This document shows, one piece after another, positions 1 through 40,535 of a stretch of 64,000 nt of DNA (its first letter is position 1; each line of letters opens with the position of its first letter). The notes beneath the pieces were generated by a model. The model was not told the origin of the DNA. It searched no databases and saw nothing but the letters and a program-made list of their open reading frames with translations. Where the stretch lies: the NCBI GenBank assembly GCA_036172245.1, contig JAYWIR010000039.1:1736001-1800000 (forward strand), in the 5' to 3' direction. The translations under genes and the position numbers were made by a program. The DNA is from Raillietiella orientalis. Taxonomy: Eukaryota.

Positions 1-1884
1 TAATAGTACAAAAAGCTTACAGTATTAATAAGAATGTCATTTGAGTGATAACGATATATCAATATGCTATATGATACATTAGATAATGTAATAATAAAAG
101 GGTACATACACATGTATAATTAAAATACACACTGACATCTCATTCGCATAAAGCAGCGGATGCTTTATGTGTTGACAAAAATTTCAAGCACACTTTCTGA
201 TTTGATTTGCAGTTATGAGACAAATTTCTCTTTACTCATGCTGCTTTTATGTGCTTTGCTACGTATACTATACATTACAATTCATTGGACTTTTTTTTCT
301 AATGATTATAATTGACATTTTTTCATCTACAGAAGTAAACCACCGTTTTATAAAAACTGATGCGTTATGTCCATCATCTCTTAGATTTTCTCAAAAAATG
401 AGCTCACATTCATGGATTAGTAACTGTATGATGTCACTCGTTTTACTTATGTTTCAATTTGATTTTAAACTGTGTCGTTTTCTTCCTTAGAAGGTATGCA
501 CCACATTGCATAGTTTTCAAAACTGTCAAATAATGTAAATGAATTCTTTCGCTCAAGGTAATCGAACTCTCAAAATCACCAAGCACACTCAAACCAAACC
601 ATACGCAAATTTACTCAGATTAAAAGTTAATCCCCTAAGCATGCACACTATTTTAATCACTTCTAGAAGTATAATTATATGCCCAAATGGTTTTGCATAT
701 TTGAGTAAAGGTGAACTTTGGCTTACTCAAAATCCACAATTACGTTTTCTATATTCACTATGATATAATCGGATATTCGACGGCGTAAAATGCTGCAATC
801 TGAAATAACGAATCTAATGAAGGTGACTCTATTGAAATGAGGAGAGACTATGAGAAGCACCATCCTTGAAAGGTCACTATGTAGGTGAAATAACTAAAGC
901 ACAAGTAATGTTTTGGAATTTAATGGAGAATAAAATTTGGGTCAACGAAAGATGACCCAAATTTGCTCAAGAAAGATGAACACTCTTCACTGCAAATGCC
1001 TCATTTTGTTTCAAAGGCATAAAATTAGTAATTATGAGTATTTGGGTTCCATTTCTGTTTTCCAAGTGTTAAGCTTGTTTTTCTGCATGTTCTAATAGTC
1101 TGGACCCTGGAACCCGTTATCTATTATTTACGATAAATGCTGTAACAAAACTAAAGTTCCAGCATAATGCAGAAAACTCATTTCAATAACAGTGTGCACT
1201 TCCCAACCCATAGGAGTATGCAATTCTGCCAACCTCTCCAAAGCTTTCAAGGATATAAAAAACGCCACTAGTTGATCTTTACCTTTAAACATAGTAATAT
1301 TTCTTCATTTTGTACATTCAATAATGTTATAAAACAGTTCAAACCAATCAATCGGTGCTTTAAAAATTTCCAGTCAATTCTTCAGTTTGAATACTCCACA
1401 TGTTTACACAAAACAAAATCAATGCTTATTTAGTGACAATAAAAATGCACTGAGGCATCACAACAGAAGTGCACACTTCCTCTTATATATTAGGGTTTTA
1501 GCAAAAACCCTGACTAAAAAATCCCATTACCACTTTTCAATTGTGGAAACATTTGTGGTAATGCCAGATAAAACAAACAATATGATGACTTCACTGATCA
1601 TGTGGCAACAAATCAAACACATTAGCTTCAACAATCATGCAAGGATGTATGCAATATGAATGTACCTGTTTAAACAGGAAACTCAAATTAAAGGTGAAAA
1701 AAAATAAAATACGAAAAAATTCTTATAAACTGAAAGCTACAAGAAATCTTTTAATGAACCAAAAGTCAATACTTTTCAGATTTGATATAAAATAATTATG
1801 AATTTACGCAAAACTTTTTACAAATAAATGTGTATTGATAAAATAACATTTTACTGAGAAAAGTATTGTGACATGGAATGCCAT

Positions 1885-2259
1885 TCAATTAAAAGAAGTA
1901 TAGTTTCCACCAAGACCTTGACCATTAAATGTGCGCATGGCACTGTATGCATCCACTACAGAGCTAGCTGATGTATATCCAGTAGAAGCAGCAGCTAAAT
2001 TGGCATAGCCAGTCATCGTCATAGGTGTGGCATATCCTGCAGGTATTGCAGCAGCAGCAGCTGCTGCTGCTGCTGCTGCTGCCTGTGTGCCACGGTACTG
2101 TGCTGCACTAGCAGCTGTGTATCCTAAAGTTGCAACATTGGCAGCTCCACCAGCAGTCAAGTAACCAGCTGCCATTGTTGGATTTCCTATTCCTAGATTT
2201 CCGGTAGGTGTTGAGTTTAGAAATAATTCAATATAACGATGCTGCATATGGGCTTTGTC
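1885..2259 (-). CDS. HNRNPF/H (glo): hnRNP F/H last coding exon (end of qRRM3, poly-Ala low-complexity tail, stop)
   Basis: Encodes [17 protein letters not shown]...; TGA at 1887-1885. Confidence 0.92.
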
Positions 2260-4814
2260 CTGTAGATTTGTTAGAGATGTAGTGATTTAAATTACTCACT
2301 TTTGACATAGCCTTGACAGCATCCTCATGTGTTGCAAATTCCACATCTGCTTCACCTGATGCCCTTCCATTATCTTCATACAAGATATTGACCCGCACAG
2401 GAACAAGTGGCTTAAAAAACTATAGTGCCTCTATAAGTTGTAATATAAGTTGCTTTAACTTACATCAACAATATCTTGTTCCGAAGCACGAAATGGTAAA
2501 CCACGCATGTGAACACAATGGCCAGTTGATCCTGTAGTGTAACCTACACCTTTAGCAAATGCTCCAGTAGCATCAAGTGTCAAAGTTTGTCGACTACCTC
2601 TTCCTCCTCCCCAGTTATTTTCATAATAGTCATCAAAATCTGGAATAAATCAAGCTTACTTATTGCACATTATCCGTTGTTTTTTACCTCCTTTGAATGT
2701 CCGAGTGCCTCGGCCTGTGCTGGCATATCGGCTAGTTCCACTTAAACGATCACCTCGGTCATAAGGACCAGGACGTGCAGGCAATGCCAACACAGGTCTC
2801 ATTTTAGGACCCATGGCAGCCCTCACTTCTGACAACGAACTCCGGAAAATCTCAATGTACCTGAGCAGAAACATGTAAGCAAACAAGACTATGCATGCAG
2901 AACTCAGCTAGACAGGTACACCACCTGCTCTTTGTAATTAGAAAATAATAAAAAAACTCTACTCCCTGTTGGGTCTTGCTTGGTCCCACCTCCCCCCGGT
3001 GCCTAATCTTCTTCCCGGCCCGTAGCTCCCTCTTCAACCCGGAAACCATGTACAATAAGCACTTCAGAAACTATCCAAGATATGGAAAGTAATTTCAAAG
3101 GGGCACCTGATGCACTCAGCAGGCCCCTTTGTCCAAAACTCACACACATATTACTTAACAATCACACAGAATATAAAAAAAAATCCAACAATATATGGGG
3201 GTAACAATAGATTGCTCTAGCCCTCCCTCCCCACCTGTGCCCAATTCTGTCCTTGTGTTTCTGAAGTGCTTTCTCTGCTATCTCCTTGTTTATGAATTGA
3301 ACATATGCTTCCCCCGTGTGCCGCCCTTGCAAGTCTGTGCAGAGTGTTATCCCATTTGGCACAATCTCCAACCCTGTAGGCATACCCACAAATCAAATAA
3401 TCAATAAACATTCATCCACTCATTTATTAGTTTTAAAATAATCTAAAAGTGTGAAAGAAGAAATCAAAAATACATTACAACCATATGCCCAAACAACTTT
3501 TGGCAACAATTTCTATTTGACATCCATCTAATGAATATTTAAAATATACATTCTGACAATAAAAAAAAAAAACAAAAAAACAAAAAAACAAGCACAAATA
3601 CAGAGAAGAACCAACACTATAAAGCAAGAACAAAATCAATATATATATACCTGTAAAGAATTGTGCAATTTCTTCTTTAGAACATCCAAATGGTAAGCCT
3701 CTTAGTCTTACACAACCATCATCCATTGAGTTCTGCATATGAACAGTACTCCGTTTAACAACCCAATCCATTTCAGATCTCTTTGCTTTGAAAACTACAA
3801 GGCCCATCAACTGCAGAAAAAACAAATTTTCATACTACCTTCTATATAACGATGACCCATAGTTTCCTTATCCTTTTTTATTCCACGTTCTACATCCTCA
3901 ATACTTTCAACTTCTATGTATGCTTCACCACTAGGTCTTCCTTCTCTTGACAAGGTCATATGAATCCCATTTTTTCCGTATAAAATGCGTACCTCAGCTA
4001 AAAAACATAGAGTAAAATTAGTTTTGAGACAATTGATTCACAAACAAAGAAACCAAATGGCCTTAAATGTTTAAGACTGCGCTAAGTCAGGTATGTATAT
4101 ACACTTCAATTCATCTGTCAATCAAAAAGCAATCAGCATCATGAACTTTCAAGGGAAGCTTATCAAGTTAACAACACCAGTTTCATCAGAATTTTAATGC
4201 TCATATTGTGGCTAATACTATGATGCTTTAATGATGCATGAACAATTTAATTATACAATAAACTACTACTTACTTGACAAATTCAAAATAACGTAGGAAT
4301 CAAACATGGATTCCTTCCATGAATTATTCACTTACCTCTTATGGCATGGGAAAAACACAAGCTCATAAAGTAACACTGAAAACACGTCAGTATTTTGCAG
4401 AAAATAAATAACACCCAGCATGCAAATGAATTTGTATTGAATACCTCATTAAACGTAAAATCATACTGCTCTTTAATAACTTACCATGTAGTTACCGAAT
4501 TAATGAATTATTCTCGGAACTTTAAGCATTTCAATTTACAAGTAGCTCACTACCTTAATTAATTATCTATTTTCATCATTATTAGAATTATATTTTCCTC
4601 GAATACACTACCTTTATTGAGATACATCAAATATTACAGCAACAAGTAATCAATGTCACATACGCTGCATTACCGAATACATACATCAAAATCAAAATCA
4701 CTTACGACCAAAAAATTTGATAATATCTTCGGCAGTAGCAGACCAAGGCAAACCCCTAACTCTCAAAACATACTGATCGTCATCTAATCCCAAAACACTT
4801 AATGTATCAGGCAT
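1885..4814 (-). CDS. HNRNPF/H (glo): hnRNP F/H family RNA-binding protein (three qRRMs, Ala/Gly/Tyr-rich C-terminus); join(4814-4706,3997-3839,3794-3651,3373-3235,2860-2688,2639-2464,2419-2300,2259-1885), 464 aa
   Basis: The spliced translation is open, all introns are GT-AG, and the exons sum to 1395 nt. Family motifs are present: [124 protein letters not shown]. Confidence 0.96.
2300..2419 (-). CDS. HNRNPF/H (glo): hnRNP F/H coding exon 7
   Basis: Encodes [46 protein letters not shown] donor. Confidence 0.92.
2464..2639 (-). CDS. HNRNPF/H (glo): hnRNP F/H coding exon 6 (linker and start of qRRM3)
   Basis: Encodes [15 protein letters not shown]...[28 protein letters not shown] donor. Confidence 0.9.
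2688..2860 (-). CDS. HNRNPF/H (glo): hnRNP F/H coding exon 5
   Basis: ctgctcag acceptor; encodes [13 protein letters not shown]...RPGPYDR. Confidence 0.9.
3235..3373 (-). CDS. HNRNPF/H (glo): hnRNP F/H coding exon 4 (139 nt, candidate autoregulated cassette exon)
   Basis: Encodes [11 protein letters not shown]...GEAYVQF...HKDRIGHR; donor is CAG|GTGGGGAGGGAGGG. Confidence 0.93.
3651..3794 (-). CDS. HNRNPF/H (glo): hnRNP F/H coding exon 3 (start of qRRM2)
   Basis: Encodes [14 protein letters not shown]...[23 protein letters not shown] donor at 3650. Confidence 0.92.
3839..3997 (-). CDS. HNRNPF/H (glo): hnRNP F/H coding exon 2 (rest of qRRM1)
   Basis: ttttttag acceptor; encodes [20 protein letters not shown]...[10 protein letters not shown]. 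Confidence 0.92.
4706..4814 (-). CDS. HNRNPF/H (glo): hnRNP F/H coding exon 1 ([36 protein letters not shown])
   Basis: ATG at 4814-4812, start of qRRM1, GTAAGT donor at 4705. Confidence 0.9.
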
Positions 4815-4871
4815 CTCCAGTTTTTTTTCTTTCCTAAGAATCAACTCACTACTATACAAGAAACCTCACAT

Positions 4872-4881
4872 AAAATGGCGC
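4872..4881 (-). promoter_or_regulatory. YY1/pho-type motif (GCGCCATTTT) just upstream of the hnRNP F/H start codon
   Basis: Plus strand aaaatggcgc reads GCGCCATTTT on the gene strand, about 60 nt before the ATG. This motif is common near housekeeping-gene transcription starts. Confidence 0.45.
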
Positions 4882-5879
4882 CTCAAGCTTTGAAAAGGGC
4901 ATTCGCTTCTACAAAGCAGGTATCACGTTATAATCGAGTCGGTAATGAACAATCGCATATTACCAAGATTAATTTTACAAAAAAATTTTCTTTATGTGCG
5001 AATGGGAAACTAGAACAGATATTAGTATCTTCCATCGCTGTATGACCAATGAAATAACATTATGCAGATTTTTTCCTCTTTATTCTGTATATTGTTTCAA
5101 TTTCAGAGGTAATTACATAAACATATATAGTGTATATTAGCGCTACTTATTTTGAAGTTTGAAAGTATTCAAATCATTCAATAAAGCATCAGTCAATCGA
5201 TCCCAGTATTTTCTCTGCTAATTTTAATAAATAAATGTAATGTAAATAAACGATAAAAAAAAAACTAATGCATGGATACCTAACCAAGTGAATACAGATG
5301 CATGACCCCGTTATGAAGACAAATACTGTACCCATATGTGCATAAATTTGCACATTTAGAGAAGCTGGAGATAGGATCTATATCTTTTTCCCTCGATTAT
5401 ATTGCTGGTATGAAGGTATGAAATCTTTAAAGAATGCTATTTCTAAATCCTTTGAAACAATTAAGTAATAACAAAAGAAGACGCGCTGCAACAACGTAAT
5501 TTCTAATTATTTTCGGTTTGTATTTCTGCAATGTGCCTTTTTTTTTTTCTTAAAAAAAAAGGAACTTTTGGCTTAATTGGAAGGCATGAGATCTAGAATA
5601 GTAATCTGGGAATTCGAGGGGTCAATTTCATTGTTACCTAGAATAAATAAATACACCAATTCAATGTAGCAGCTAAATCAATGGAGCTGGGTAGGAATAA
5701 ATCAATGAATTTAAAATAAGAGAGATCTTGCTTTAGATTTAAATATGGTCAAGAATTTCGTTTATTATTCAAGGTATATGACTCCAATTGCTTATTTGTA
5801 TGATCTGGTTTGCTTTGTACTGTCTTTAGCTATCAATGGAACTGTTTTATCCTTAATATCGTGGTATTACCTTCTGATT

Positions 5880-6200
5880 TCAAAACAAGGAGTTACCTCT
5901 GTATCGATTCCGAACGAGCTTCGGAATGAGCCCCACCAGGAGGAGGAAAGAAGGACATTGTTCCAGTCGCAGGAAACTACACAGTCTAGGCTAGAGAAGC
6001 TCTCCTTGGCAGGAGGAGTCAGCTCAGTCGATTTCTCGTCCTGTCCGCTACTACCGGGTTTCGGGGACCCCAATATCGGATGCGTGGGAAACTGCAAAGA
6101 TGGATCCTTCCTCCTTCGCCCTGCTCGGGTAGTCTTGACGGAAGCCTGTCATGGATTCCAAATCAGAGTGAGACAGGTCGCCGTCTCTCCCGGAGCAGAG
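5880..6200 (+). mobile_element. Decayed non-LTR retrotransposon, AP-endonuclease-like fragment
   Basis: The translation P..EEERRTLFQ...LSLAGG..GFG..NIG..GN..DG.FLL...LT..HGFQ follows the residue spacing of RTE/L2/CR1 endonucleases, but the catalytic motifs are corrupted. It coincides with an abrupt AT-to-GC transition. Confidence 0.35.
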
Positions 6201-8572
6201 GAATCCGTGACTCCAAAGTGCCCGGGCGTCCGCTCTCCCAGTTCTGAAATTAGGTGGCGGAGGAAAAGGAAATCAAAAGAAAACAGAAAAAAAAAATCCT
6301 TCCAGAGCTCCCTGACAACATCGCGCGTACCTCTGCAGATTGTGGATTCACGTGGTGCACTCAAGGCTCACGGACTCTGTCCTGTGGGTACTGCCGCAAC
6401 CATGCGTTTCCGCTCTCTCCGGCAGCCAAAGACATGCCCTTTCACGGAAACTGTGGTACAGGTGGTAGGAATACTCGGAGAAAGCGGAGCAGCCCCGTCG
6501 TGGGCGAGACTATGGAGAAGAACCCTCGAAGGTCAAGTTTGGAACCCACTGTACCGCTCACCCGTCGTCGCAGCAAGGAGGAGCTGGAATGTGAAGCGTG
6601 ACCACATAGGGCGCGCTGCTCACAAGCAGACTCCTCACAGGAGCAGCCTCACAAATGAATGCATCTCGAGAGAATCATCATCTCACAAGGGAACCTTTCT
6701 CGATATGCCCGTCTGGGTCGTTCTTACGGGTGAAGCCTCCGTAGGGCTGTATGCTACAGAGCACACCAAGAGCTTACTTTAGTAGAGCGGCGTTCTGGCA
6801 TGATGGCGCGAGAAACTTTTTCGGACAGTGCTGAGTGCCAAAGACGTCGCACGTCTTTTAGAAATCTGTTCCTCAAAATTTTCTGGAACGAAAATTTGTG
6901 AGCCAAAGCAAAGCGCCGAAAGGTAGGTTGTCTCATTCCAGGGATAGAAGGCCCTGCTCTTTGGACGAAATGCGGGGTAAAGGAAAAAAATGCACCCGTT
7001 CGTCCCGGGAAGTGGTAATTCGATCGATGGCAGGGCGACTTCTGGGACACGGTTCGCGTCGGTTCTTATACATGAGTCCCTACTTTCCGTCTGATTGTCG
7101 CCTGGTTGCGCCTGGGCGTTTATTCCATATAAAAAAAATAAACAATCGTGGTCTCTGTGGTCGGACCGATTGTCCAACCACGTGCAATTTGAAGGGGGCC
7201 TTCCAGGCTACCGGTATGCAGAGGTGAGGCCCTCTACGGCAGCAGAGGAGAGAGGGCAAACAAAAAGATTAAAAAAAAGAAACAAGAATAAAAAAAAAGG
7301 GGGAGGGGGGAAGCTAGAAGGGATCACGTTCTGCTGAGGGCGCTCCTCTGCATCCTCTGTAGAATGCCGGCAAGCTCTTGCTGTATATAGGCTCTTTCAG
7401 TCTGAAGTTGAGAAGGGAGAACCGTTGGCAACCGATACATGAGGGAAAAAGATTCAGAAACTTAAGAAGAGGTCGTATCAATGGTTGAGATAAGCATAGG
7501 ATGCACGGAACTATGGAGAACTGAAAAAAAATTTGAAGCTCTCGGAGCTGTGGGACTTCTGTGGGATGTTTCCCGTGGAAGTCACGCAAGGAAACAAAGC
7601 CAATCACTCATTTGGGAGACGCTCTAGTAAAAGGCAGGTCGTGAAAAGGAGGAGGACAGCATAGGCCTTTCGAAAGCTCCCTTCCAAGGAATCGAACAGT
7701 CGCGGGATTGTTCGCTGGCCGGACGAGAAAAATTTCTCCAGATTTCAGGTTTGTGGGCGTTTGCACAGCAAAGGAAAGAAGTGTCAGGTTCGGAAGAATG
7801 AACGAAAGGACACGGTTGGAAGGAGAGGACGCAGCGCATACCCGGGAGTAGGCCGGAGGATCTCAGGCGTGGCGAGCCCTCGAAGATGCGGAACTTCTTG
7901 AACTTTCTCAACCTTAGATCCCGCTGTTTCCAGTACCGATCGAAGTGCTAGCGAGGCGAGCTACTAGCCGCTCGTCATCTGTTCGCATGCGTGACGACTG
8001 ATCCAGAGGGATCTGTATCGGGAAAATCGAGCCAGCTTTCTTGTTCCCGGTGCATTAGGGGTTGACGTCCAGGTGTTGTCAGCAGTGCCGTTTTTCCCTA
8101 GTGGAAGTGAAATCACTATTGTCTATGAAGAGTGATCTTCCGAAACGATGCGAGATGAAAATCCACGGTCGAAGTCGATGGCAGCTCACGCAAAGGCACA
8201 TCCGAGAACCAAAAAGTGCAGGAGAAACAGGAAATCTTCCTCCTATCCTCCCATGCTTTTGCGAAGAGGCATCTTCGTAGCATGGCAGCCAAGCTAAGCA
8301 ACGGCGTTTCTATGAGGAACGCTTGGAGGGTTTGTGTGTGCACGACGCTCGTTGAGCCGACGTGCTTCCACAGATTGGGAAAAGCATCGGAAAAAAAAAA
8401 AAAAAAAAGGCGATTCGTTTCCCAGCAAGGCATCCACTCACAGCGACATCTGGAAGCACCAATTTGTTTTCGTCTCAGTGGCTTCACGAGCTTCAAGTTT
8501 GCTGCACTCTTAACGGGATACTTGTCTATTGAATTTATTTAGAGCAATGAAACTGCATGTAAATGCGTTTGC

Positions 8573-39407: not shown

Positions 39408-40080
39408 TTTTTTGCGAGAACACCTGAAGCACGGAGGCTTCGCGGTAATCCCGGTTTGCTGGAACTGCCCGGATCTTTTCGGTTCCCTGGGTCAGGCCCG
39501 ATCGGAAAAATCATGAATGAGGGGCGTTCGAAGCGGCACACCAACGAGGCCGTGCGTGATTCCCGGGCGCGCATTCCCCGCTGCGTTCCAGGCCCTACGG
39601 AAGGGGACACGGGAAAGCGCAAGGGTCCCGCGTTTGCCGTCGCGGGAAGGCCCACCGCGTCCACGCCATCCCGCATGGTCACTTCGTCCACAAGCGAAGT
39701 GGGTGGGTGGGGAGGGGGGGGGGAGAGCCCCTCGAACGGCCGAGCAGCGATACGCAATAGCGTTGCGGCTACAGGATGTGTGCTTCCGAGAGCACTCTCA
39801 CCTGTGCCTGATTTGCGAGAGAGGAGGGAAAAAAAAACACACACACACACACACAGATTTCGTTCGATACTGCTCAACGCATTTGCTACAACTTTGCCAG
39901 CGAGCGGCACGAAACTTGCACGCAACCCCTAAACAACAACTCGTCTTCAGGAGGAGGAAGAAGACGAAGAAGGAGGAGGAGAAGAAAGAAGAAGAAGAAG
40001 GAAAAAAAAAAAAAAAAAAACACCTTACCCTTCGCGCTGTTTACAAAGAGGGAACTCAAAACGAGCCACGAAAAGATCAT
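33604..40080 (-). CDS. Divergent nicotinic acetylcholine receptor alpha-type (Cys-loop pLGIC) subunit; join(40080-40029,36712-36570,36507-36463,35431-35322,35277-35067,34455-34131,34086-33917,33867-33604), 439 aa
   Basis: Open spliced frame (1320 nt) with all introns GT-AG. It contains a signal peptide, LL..YD..KRPV, W.DEYFRWDPSEYGG, WKPD, the Cys-loop C-X13-C (CSMNFRLWPRDTQKC), vicinal CC (FTCCPEPY), four TM helices and DW..VA..IDR before TM4. The 45-nt and 110-nt exons are typical of nAChR genes. Confidence 0.93.
33917..34086 (-). CDS. nAChR-like exon 7 (TM3 and start of intracellular loop)
   Basis: Encodes VTFFSNCLVAVCISLVISTIL...PPP; GTGAGT donor. Confidence 0.88.
34131..34455 (-). CDS. 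nAChR-like exon 6 (loop C, TM1, TM2)
   Basis: Encodes W.ILNV..RTLKRFTCCPEPYVDVTVSLHLKR...TM1...FLLPPGSSGKLLLG...IP...LPLL. Confidence 0.93.
35067..35277 (-). CDS. nAChR-like exon 5 (Cys-loop, loop B)
   Basis: Encodes GKVRWAPPAQFHSHCSMNFRLWPRDTQKCELLLGSLFHD; GTGAGG donor. Confidence 0.92.
35322..35431 (-). CDS. nAChR-like exon 4 (110 nt, loop A)
   Basis: Encodes MWFDEYFRWDPSEYGGLKQLYLCDDEFWKPDLTVLN. Confidence 0.93.
36463..36507 (-). CDS. nAChR-like exon 3 (45 nt, loop D)
   Basis: Encodes DEWNSVMETKMWITM; phase 0/0. Confidence 0.92.
36570..36712 (-). CDS. nAChR-like exon 2
   Basis: Encodes SQDSIDWTLKLRHDLLSRYDPIKRPVYNYNSTVNVTL...; cttttcag acceptor, GTAAGC donor. Confidence 0.92.
39377..39403. 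repeat. (GT)n microsatellite flanked by T-runs
   Basis: Directly visible, about 13 units. Confidence 0.9.
40029..40080 (-). CDS. nAChR-like exon 1 (signal peptide MIFSWLVLSSLFVNSAKG)
   Basis: ATG, hydrophobic leader, and a G|GTAAGG phase-1 donor matching the phase-1 acceptor at 36712. Confidence 0.75.
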
Positions 40081-40469
40081 CTCCGCTTAATTCGATGCAA
40101 GTAGCCTTTTTTTTTTTTTTGTTTTTTTTTTTGTTTTTTTTTTTTCGTTTTTCCTTCGTTCAAATCGGCTGGTTGGAAATCAACATGTCTTCCTTCCGAA
40201 ATTAGAGAGCATCATTATTAGAAACCACATCTGTTCATTCCTAAACACGGGGTTCCGGTTGCGTTCCACGTGAAAACCTTTCACCTTTCATGGACAATCG
40301 CATACTAAGCTCGCGCACGTGTTGCTGTTGAATTATAACACACCGCTCCAGGCAGTGAGTGAATTACCAAGTACATCTGCGACAGAGATCACTTCTGAAT
40401 AGCAAACGAAAAAGTACGTGTGAATTAAAACCAACTCCCATTTTCCTTCAGCATTTTTTTTTTCTTTTT

Positions 40470-40470
<1 letters not shown>

Positions 40471-40533
<63 letters not shown>

Positions 40534-40535
40534 TC
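40471..40535. repeat. (CTTT)n tetranucleotide microsatellite
   Basis: About 16 perfect units, roughly 400 nt upstream of the nAChR-like ATG. Confidence 0.95.

Follow-up and report, generated by a model that had tools for sequence, protein, structure and literature searches.

Conserved G-runs in and around exon 4 of an hnRNP F/H gene from Raillietiella orientalis resemble the cis-architecture of the vertebrate HNRNPH1 nonsense-mediated decay switch

Does the exon-skipping switch of vertebrate HNRNPH1 have a counterpart in invertebrates, and if so, is it the same switch? The question is raised by an hnRNP F/H gene on the minus strand of a 64,000-nt stretch of Raillietiella orientalis DNA (assembly GCA_036172245.1, contig JAYWIR010000039.1, positions 1,736,001 to 1,800,000), referred to here at its full length as the window. 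A first-pass annotation had proposed that exon 4 of this gene behaves like its vertebrate equivalent, being skipped under the influence of G-runs bound by the gene's own product, with loss of the reading frame and nonsense-mediated decay (NMD) of the mRNA. Comparison with related loci indicates that the G-run pattern is a conserved feature kept by selection, rather than a quirk of the window genome, and that the cis-architecture of the human HNRNPH1 exon-4 NMD switch is common to protostome-like and vertebrate-like lineages. By analogy with the vertebrate gene, exon 4 of the window gene would be a negative-feedback NMD switch with a selected G-run code, a reading to which we give a probability of about 60%.

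The vertebrate precedent is described in two preprints. Skipping of human HNRNPH1 exon 4 breaks the reading frame and the skipped form rises in the presence of cycloheximide (Pararajalingam et al., 10.1101/686956). In the same paper, re-analysed published individual-nucleotide crosslinking and immunoprecipitation (iCLIP) data place the HNRNPH1 protein on its own pre-mRNA at exon 4, and somatic mutations of the poly-G motifs in and around the exon raise its inclusion. NMD sensitivity was confirmed with cycloheximide in a 2026 preprint (PMC13001508), where antisense oligonucleotides were used to drive skipping. The human mechanism that the first-pass annotation had invoked (exon-4 skipping, frameshift, NMD and a role for poly-G) can thus be found in print in these two sources.

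We built a model of the window gene from the minus strand of positions 1-8000, by locating splice sites and translating in silico (Table 1). The seven introns measure 708, 44, 277, 374, 48, 44 and 40 nt, with GT..AG borders throughout, and exon 4 is bordered by two long ones, introns 2, 5, 6 and 7 having only 40-48 nt. The 464-aa product has three qRRM-type domains. The signature loops of the qRRM are defined as RGLP[WF], G-R-x-[ST]-G-E-A and HRYIE[VIL]F, and they are present in all three domains (qRRM1, qRRM2 and qRRM3) of the translation; exons 4 and 7 each give an RRM_1 score that passes the cut-off. With the exon-4 peptide as query, 350 proteins were obtained; the best of them are called hnRNP H, hnRNP F or glorund (71-82% identity over the exon) and carry three precomputed Pfam families, PF28442, PF00076 and PF28441. 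The full-length product is 57-69% identical to arthropod and vertebrate members over about 350 aa; among the stored proteins its best match is from a mayfly (69% over 360 aa), with 60-65% for hymenopterans, ticks and spiders and 57% for vertebrates. The variable exon-6 peptide found one relative only, among 18 candidates. On these signatures and matches we assign the gene to the hnRNP F/H (qRRM) family and its exon 4 to the orthologues of the vertebrate HNRNPH1 exon GLEIVPNG...IGH/R (slashes mark splice junctions). The orthology had been claimed in the first-pass annotation, and the peptide identity to vertebrate hnRNP H/H3 (73-82%) bears it out.

The predicted consequence of skipping also stands as first described. 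Exon 4 has 139 nt, which is not a multiple of three, and in the gene model the joining of exon 3 to exon 5 shifts the frame, so that translation would end at the TGA at 2825-2823. This stop precedes the exon 5/6 junction by 135 nt and the normal stop by about 0.9 kb of mRNA. NMD in flies and worms is not known to need a downstream junction; if that is so, the length of message 3' of the early stop matters more than the 135 nt. Among the related loci described below, exon 5 is known in 20 clusters, and in all 20 skipping would bring a stop codon into frame 5-155 nt from the start of that exon.

What is distinctive about exon 4 is its G-runs, and not the weakness of its splice sites. All five Gly codons in or at the exon are GGG, vs. 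1 of 46 elsewhere in the gene (Fisher p=2.6e-6), the other 46 being divided between GGA (21), GGT (18), GGC (6) and GGG (1). This codon count agrees with the five GGG codons of the first-pass annotation and with its single GGG elsewhere, and corrects its total of about 45 other Gly codons to exactly 46. The homologous Gly positions of qRRM1 and qRRM3 (GRxSGEA, GHRY) are coded GGA or GGT. Over the gene region (1400-5000), 17 of the 32 sense-strand G-runs of at least three Gs fall within 3387-2964, which makes up 12% of it, and the interval 3404-2861 has 17 G-runs vs. 3 C-runs. Mononucleotide shuffles of this interval gave 8.9 +/- 2.4 G-runs, with 3 of 1000 reaching 17; dinucleotide shuffles gave 12.7 +/- 1.9, with 9 of 300 reaching 17.

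The exon-4 acceptor region reads ...tttgtGGGtatgcctacag/GG and the donor CAG/GTGGGGAGGGAGGG. With a GGG between -15 and -3 and a purine-interrupted tract, the features given for such sites in PMC6339879, the acceptor is of the REPAG type. The first-pass annotation had reported a GGG and a poor pyrimidine tract at this site: the GGG is there (-14 to -12), and the tract is indeed low in pyrimidines (10/18 at -20 to -3, the longest run being 3), yet it is not the lowest of the seven, the acceptors of exon 7 (8) and exon 3 (9) being poorer. The donor, which had been called weak, is not so by our count, matching MAG/GTRAGT at 7 of 9 positions and equalling or beating five of the gene's other six donors. 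Strength was judged here by simple consensus and pyrimidine counts; as these give no support to weak splice sites as the basis of regulation, we rejected that idea. Elsewhere in the gene, the exon-3 acceptor is likewise preceded by a GGG (-11 to -9; 3805-3803, minus strand), which lies in the 44-nt intron 2 within a tract poor in pyrimidines (9/18).

Several potential structures accompany the G-runs. Two canonical G-quadruplex motifs were found on the sense strand of 1400-5000 (3242-3221 and 3040-3014), and none on the antisense strand. Intron 4 has a perfect 9-bp GC-rich stem at 3131-3096 on the minus strand (CAAAGGGGC / GCCCCTTTG) with an 18-nt loop, predicted at -20.6 kcal/mol in a 56-nt context, which would sequester a GGGG about 100 nt past the exon-4 donor. 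In the predicted minimum-free-energy fold of intron 4, the donor GUGGGG (3234-3195 region, minus strand) pairs with a C5 run at 3201-3197, a stem that could possibly mask the 5' splice site locally, as an alternative to a G-quadruplex. CCC occurs within the initial 30 intronic nt of only 5 of 21 clusters, and the donor/C5 stem is probably not general.

To see the exon in other lineages, we aligned 19 exon-4 peptides and scanned the resulting patterns over metagenome contigs, which yielded 181 matches and 62 loci that encode the exon. It is bounded by ag/.../gt at exactly the boundaries of the window's exon 4 in 46 of the 62; a further 13, which are cDNA-like, read in frame into exon 5. Of the remaining three, two carry small indels and one is truncated by the end of its contig. 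The 61 complete loci formed 30 clusters at a minimum of 90% exon nucleotide identity. Phase and boundaries (ag/GG...CAC AG/gt) are common to the intron-flanked loci, and the exon has 139 nt except in the two indel clusters; identity between the exon of the window gene and the representatives of the clusters is 37-76%, or 60-76% without the indel clusters. Four of the five Gly positions lie outside both peptide patterns used in the scan, so the search cannot have selected for them.

Clusters were named after the nearest stored named protein, as nearest-neighbour calls. By this measure one cluster is nearest to a termite (L001, 94% over 50 aa), one to a leafhopper (L011, 93% over 399 aa) and one to an ant (L016, 82%), two to Daphnia (L022 and L034, 78-79%), three to bivalves (L020, L027 and L031, 80-85%), one to a gastropod (L029, 81%) and L014/L015/L019 and L018 to vertebrates (75-90%). 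Eleven clusters had no named match of at least 70% (L023, L025, L030, L032, L033, L035, L036, L038, L041, L046 and L061); the nearest-protein identity of L062 is 42-44%, and for five marine cDNA-like clusters the nearest stored protein is an unnamed eukprot entry (54-59%). A profile search meant to put names to clusters returned mostly the same arthropod and vertebrate proteins; the molluscs, Daphnia and ants that it contributed made some of the above assignments possible. No locus of nematode type was recognised in the set of 62. The vertebrate-type loci L014, L015 and L019 comprise H1-like and H3-like peptide types within one cluster at the 90% exon-4 nucleotide threshold, which marks the exon as extremely conserved within vertebrates.

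An identical intronic string, ttttgggctgggtgtttag, occupies the last ~19 nt before exon 4 in L020, L025, L027 and L031, with variants in L026 and L028. The carriers have exons that differ by more than 10% and exon-4 peptides with many substitutions between them; three of the four (L020, L027 and L031) are bivalve-like, and the fourth, L025, is among the clusters lacking a named match of at least 70%. The shared string suggests either that the intron is conserved to an unusual depth or that these are paralogues from a single phylum.

The first-pass annotation had let its case depend on GGG codons being conserved in orthologues. They are: with one representative per cluster, the five Gly positions are GGG in 114/145 cases (79%), vs. 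88/924 (10%) of the other Gly codons of the same genes, located by tblastn. Of the 26 clusters that offer at least five Gly codons outside the exon, every one has an excess of GGG in exon 4, with p<0.05 in 22. This does not extend to the other amino acids of the exon. Where Val, Pro, Ala or Thr is invariant, the most frequent codon accounts for only 8/22 to 15/28 of the representatives. When shared four-fold codons are compared in pairs, identity at the third base is 0.31 for non-Gly codons vs. 0.62 for Gly codons, and the third base is G at 24% of non-Gly four-fold sites vs. 73% of Gly sites. On these values, the non-Gly four-fold sites of the exon are near saturation.

The intronic flanks follow the same pattern. 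Among the 21 intron-flanked clusters (window included), the exon-4 donor begins with GTGGG in 18, vs. 0/10 exon-3 donors, and a GGG falls within the initial 30 intronic nt in 19/21, vs. 2/10 at the exon-3 donor (Fisher p 2e-4, donor side). On the acceptor side, a GGG is present in the final 30 nt before exon 4 in 18/21 clusters, vs. 0/11 before exon 5 (Fisher p 3e-6), and CCC is found there in 0/21. The mean number of G-runs from -10 to +50 is 3.3 at the exon-4 donor and 0.4 at the exon-3 donor. We rejected the donor G-quadruplex as a general conserved element, its motif occurring in 4/21 clusters (8/21 with loops of up to 12 nt); the alignments indicate that the conserved unit is the G-run, not the quadruplex. 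The anatomy of the exon, its orthology and the strong and specific conservation of its G-runs across phyla are thus observed directly. In the literature searched, from which subscription journals were largely absent, we found no description of a cross-phylum conservation of the exon-4 G-run code, synonymous GGG codons included.

The closest known system is vertebrate HNRNPH1 exon 4, which is the same exon, gives a frameshift and premature stop on skipping and has G-runs inside and on both flanks. One vertebrate-type locus, L014, has an exon-4 peptide that it shares without difference with 21 stored vertebrate hnRNP H proteins. As in the window gene, GGG is used at 5/5 of its Gly codons, its donor is GTGGGG and a GGG precedes its acceptor. 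The two exons are only 72% identical in nucleotide sequence, so the shared G-runs are islands in otherwise diverged sequence; the flanking introns are 277 and 374 nt in the window vs. 1515 and 999 nt in L014. Skipping, NMD sensitivity, binding and mutation effects are reported from experiments in vertebrates; for the window gene they are predictions from sequence.

The qRRMs of hnRNP F/H proteins bind G-tracts. In the mechanism that we propose, the gene's own protein (or a paralogue), when abundant, would occupy the GGG runs in and around exon 4 and hinder recognition of the exon. Bound protein would compete with U2AF at the acceptor, as described for REPAG sites, and would cover the splice site at the donor. 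Exon 3 would then be joined to exon 5, the loss of 139 nt would shift the frame to the early stop, and removal of the skipped mRNA by NMD would hold the protein level down. The action of the G-runs in negative feedback is taken from the vertebrate literature, and skipping, NMD and feedback would operate in R. orientalis by extension from it. The acceptor step draws on the finding that G-tracts between the polypyrimidine tract and the AG repress 3' splice sites via hnRNP H/F, which interfere with U2AF65; human hnRNP H1 exon 4 is among the examples of aberrant splicing tied to the G tract or to 3' splice-site control, and REPAG sites are described as much rarer in invertebrates (PMC6339879, Xie laboratory). 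REPAG is a general class of splice sites, whereas the GGG at the window acceptor is part of a larger, gene-specific set of conserved G-runs.

A different use of the same elements would make them conserved constitutive splicing enhancers, which would help to define an exon whose donor is unusual and whose pyrimidine tract is poor; that exon would always be included, with neither switch nor feedback. Intronic G-triplets near 5' splice sites can enhance splicing, the exon-4 donor fits the consensus as well as the gene's other donors, and conservation alone cannot separate an enhancer from a silencer. The sequences around the human exon are moreover termed "splicing enhancer sequences" in PMC13001508. 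However, poly-G mutations raise inclusion of the human exon, which is the opposite of what loss of an enhancer would do (10.1101/686956), and PMC6339879 ascribes an inhibitory effect to a GGG that separates the pyrimidine tract from the AG. Five exonic GGG codons together with both flanks also exceed a simple compensation for poor sites, and the gene product is itself a GGG-binding protein. We consider this explanation unlikely, though it deserves to be taken seriously.

Alternatively, the NMD switch could be real and be driven mainly by something other than the gene's own product: a paralogue, another G-run or G-quadruplex binder, developmental stage, or folding of a G-quadruplex at the donor in response to temperature or ions. 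The canonical G-quadruplex motif across the window donor (3242-3221) is in keeping with this, as is the hrpf-1 cassette of C. elegans, which is strongly stage-regulated and depends on sym-2 (PMC2265522). The quadruplex motif is nevertheless confined to the few clusters counted above (4/21, or 8/21 with relaxed loops) while the single G-runs are conserved, and control by a paralogue would still be the same feedback at the level of the family. An outside driver of this kind seems to us improbable, somewhat more so than a set of constitutive enhancers.

Chance or local composition without function, in the form of a small G+C-rich patch over exon 4, intron 4 and exon 5 (GC 0.47, 0.44 and 0.52, with about 0.25-0.31 in introns 1, 3, 5, 6 and 7 and 0.36 in intron 2), would fit the raised G+C at third positions of the non-Gly codons of exon 4 and the dinucleotide shuffle, which covers much of the G-run count (12.7 expected vs. 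17 observed), but is very improbable, because exon 5, the most GC-rich exon and richer than exon 4, has GGG at 0/7 of its Gly codons, so that composition cannot account for those of exon 4, and in view of the same five codons being GGG in lineages with their other synonymous sites randomised, of intronic G-runs at the same places in 18/21 clusters but not at neighbouring sites, and of the strong strand asymmetry (17 G-runs vs. 3 C-runs).

A number of points nonetheless weigh against a negative-feedback NMD switch at exon 4, or against its generality. The frameshift and early stop are to be expected from any exon of 139 nt, and do not in themselves point to a switch. Simple measures do not mark the splice sites as clearly weak, and exon 4 may be included efficiently. 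Third-position G+C of non-Gly codons is raised in the exon (20/41 vs. 98/372, p=0.005), showing that local composition contributes part of its signal. The L041 and L046 clusters keep the exon with only 1-2 GGG of 5, and L036, L061 and L062 lack the GTGGG donor; lineages with fewer G-runs argue that the full code is not indispensable. The taxonomy of the clusters comes from the nearest of 188 stored proteins, not from a phylogeny, and the clusters are not phylogenetically independent samples. The direction of the effect (repression or activation by G-runs) is context-dependent and would be carried over here from human data only. Lastly, the NMD cassette of hrpf-1 may be a different exon, as discussed below. 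The L041 and L046 clusters (16 loci) retain a GTGGGA (or GTGGTA) donor and GG-rich acceptor flanks, and their low GGG count could be partial decay or a rewiring of the code.

NMD-linked splicing of hnRNP F/H genes is not new to invertebrates, just as the mechanism itself is already known in vertebrates. In C. elegans hrpf-1, skipping of exon 5 leads to a stop in exon 6, the resulting form is stabilised in smg-1 mutants and splicing is influenced by the family member sym-2 (Barberan-Soler and Zahler 2008, PMC2265522). As predicted for the window gene, an NMD substrate thus arises from hrpf-1, also an invertebrate member of the hnRNP F/H family, when a cassette exon is left out; its skipped form still encodes two of three RRMs, according to the same source, which suggests an exon downstream of the qRRM2 exon. 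In Drosophila, an alternative early-stop isoform of glorund rises when NMD is impaired (Hansen et al. 2009, PMC2689934). As the fly hnRNP F/H orthologue with an NMD-affected isoform, glorund is likened to the window gene by family, and homology of the exon is not implied. Nothing on the hnRNP F/H exon came from PMC12324280, whose "exon 4" is an exon of EIF4G1, or from PMC13643759.

SR proteins and other splicing factors autoregulate through poison exons and unproductive splicing, steering their own pre-mRNA to an NMD isoform. The arrangement proposed here differs in that an essential coding exon would itself be the switch, by being skipped, and in that the cis-code lies partly in synonymous codon choice.

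How old is this arrangement? The first-pass annotation had placed it before the protostome/deuterostome split. For the cis-elements this is upheld, on evidence from the related loci rather than from the window: at that level the comparison supports an architecture predating the split. That a single homologous autoregulatory switch was already present in the last common ancestor of protostomes and deuterostomes, and has been held by selection since, is a further step, for and against which we see the balance as even. The origin may possibly be earlier still, since several of the marine clusters nearest to the unnamed eukprot entry carry 3-4 GGG of 5.

Table 1. Positions of the hnRNP F/H gene and of the elements in and around its exon 4, in window coordinates. 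Representatives are those of the exon-4 clusters (29 with the window, the two indel clusters being excluded).
Feature	Position	Strand	Remarks
hnRNP F/H gene, ATG 4814 to TGA 1885	1885..4814	minus	8 exons, 464 codons + stop
Exon 1	4814-4706	minus	109 nt
Exon 2	3997-3839	minus	159 nt
Exon 3	3794-3651	minus	144 nt; donor CAG/GTATAT, no G-run
Intron 3	3374..3650	minus	277 nt
Exon 4	3373-3235	minus	139 nt; second half of qRRM2, (G)LEIVPNG...IGH(R)
Intron 4	2861..3234	minus	374 nt; 11 G-runs vs. 3 C-runs
Exon 5	2860-2688	minus	173 nt; skipping of exon 4 would put it out of frame
Exon 6	2639-2464	minus	176 nt
Exon 7	2419-2300	minus	120 nt
Exon 8	2259-1885	minus	375 nt
Acceptor GGG at -14 to -12	3385..3387	minus	in poor pyrimidine tract; REPAG-type position
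Split Gly138 codon, GG part	3372..3373	minus	with G at 3651 (last base of exon 3) gives GGG in the mRNA
Gly145 (PNG), GGG codon	3351..3353	minus	GGG in 23/29 representatives
Gly154 (QGR), GGG codon	3324..3326	minus	GGG in 19/28 representatives
Gly158 (TGE), GGG codon inside G5 run	3311..3315	minus	GGG in 25/29 representatives
Gly182 (IGH), GGG codon	3240..3242	minus	5 nt ahead of donor; GGG in 23/29 representatives
Canonical G-quadruplex motif across 5' splice site	3221..3242	minus	four tracts of at least three Gs, loops of at most 7 nt
Donor GTGGGG then AGGGAGGG	3221..3234	minus	three G-runs in initial 14 intronic nt
Distal cluster of 7 G-runs, intron 4	2964..3040	minus	holds second G-quadruplex motif, 3040-3014
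Premature TGA after exon-4 skipping	2823..2825	minus	135 nt before exon 5/6 junction

The rest of the window offers little to set beside this gene. Sixteen long open reading frames (ORFs) in the window gave no Pfam family at E <=0.01, and 112 of the 158 ORFs that qualified (at least 55 codons, G+C under 0.47, beyond 5 kb) gave no family above the curated cut-off at E <=0.001, with one sub-threshold ArlX hit. Scans of the window found no Rfam families and no tRNAs. In 2-kb bins the G+C content of the window is 0.34-0.66, and at least 0.44 in all but five; the three bins of the gene are at 0.32-0.40. The gene is an AT-rich island of short introns adjoining a long stretch without a recognised gene, of mostly higher but uneven G+C. 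This stretch includes a (TTTC)20 microsatellite at 40457-40535 and a purine-rich 28-nt repeat in 1.9 copies at 39949-40002.

Autoregulation of splicing factors by unproductive splicing is widespread, and it is seldom clear whether its occurrence in distant phyla reflects homology or reinvention. Here, the cis-elements themselves align between insect-, crustacean-, mollusc- and vertebrate-like genes, and saturated synonymous sites of the same exon serve as the yardstick for their conservation. How old the HNRNPH1 feedback loop is, and whether it is homologous, can therefore be tested directly. The comparative result across lineages is of more interest in this respect than the window exon alone. 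It offers tractable invertebrate systems for studying how qRRM proteins read G-runs at a splice site, and predicts which synonymous changes should be non-neutral; the same G-runs are targets of somatic mutation in human mantle cell lymphoma. If a single ancestral switch did exist and has been held since, this would be among the oldest homologous cis-regulatory splicing codes known, and a case of an RNA-binding domain whose own codons carry the motif that the protein binds.

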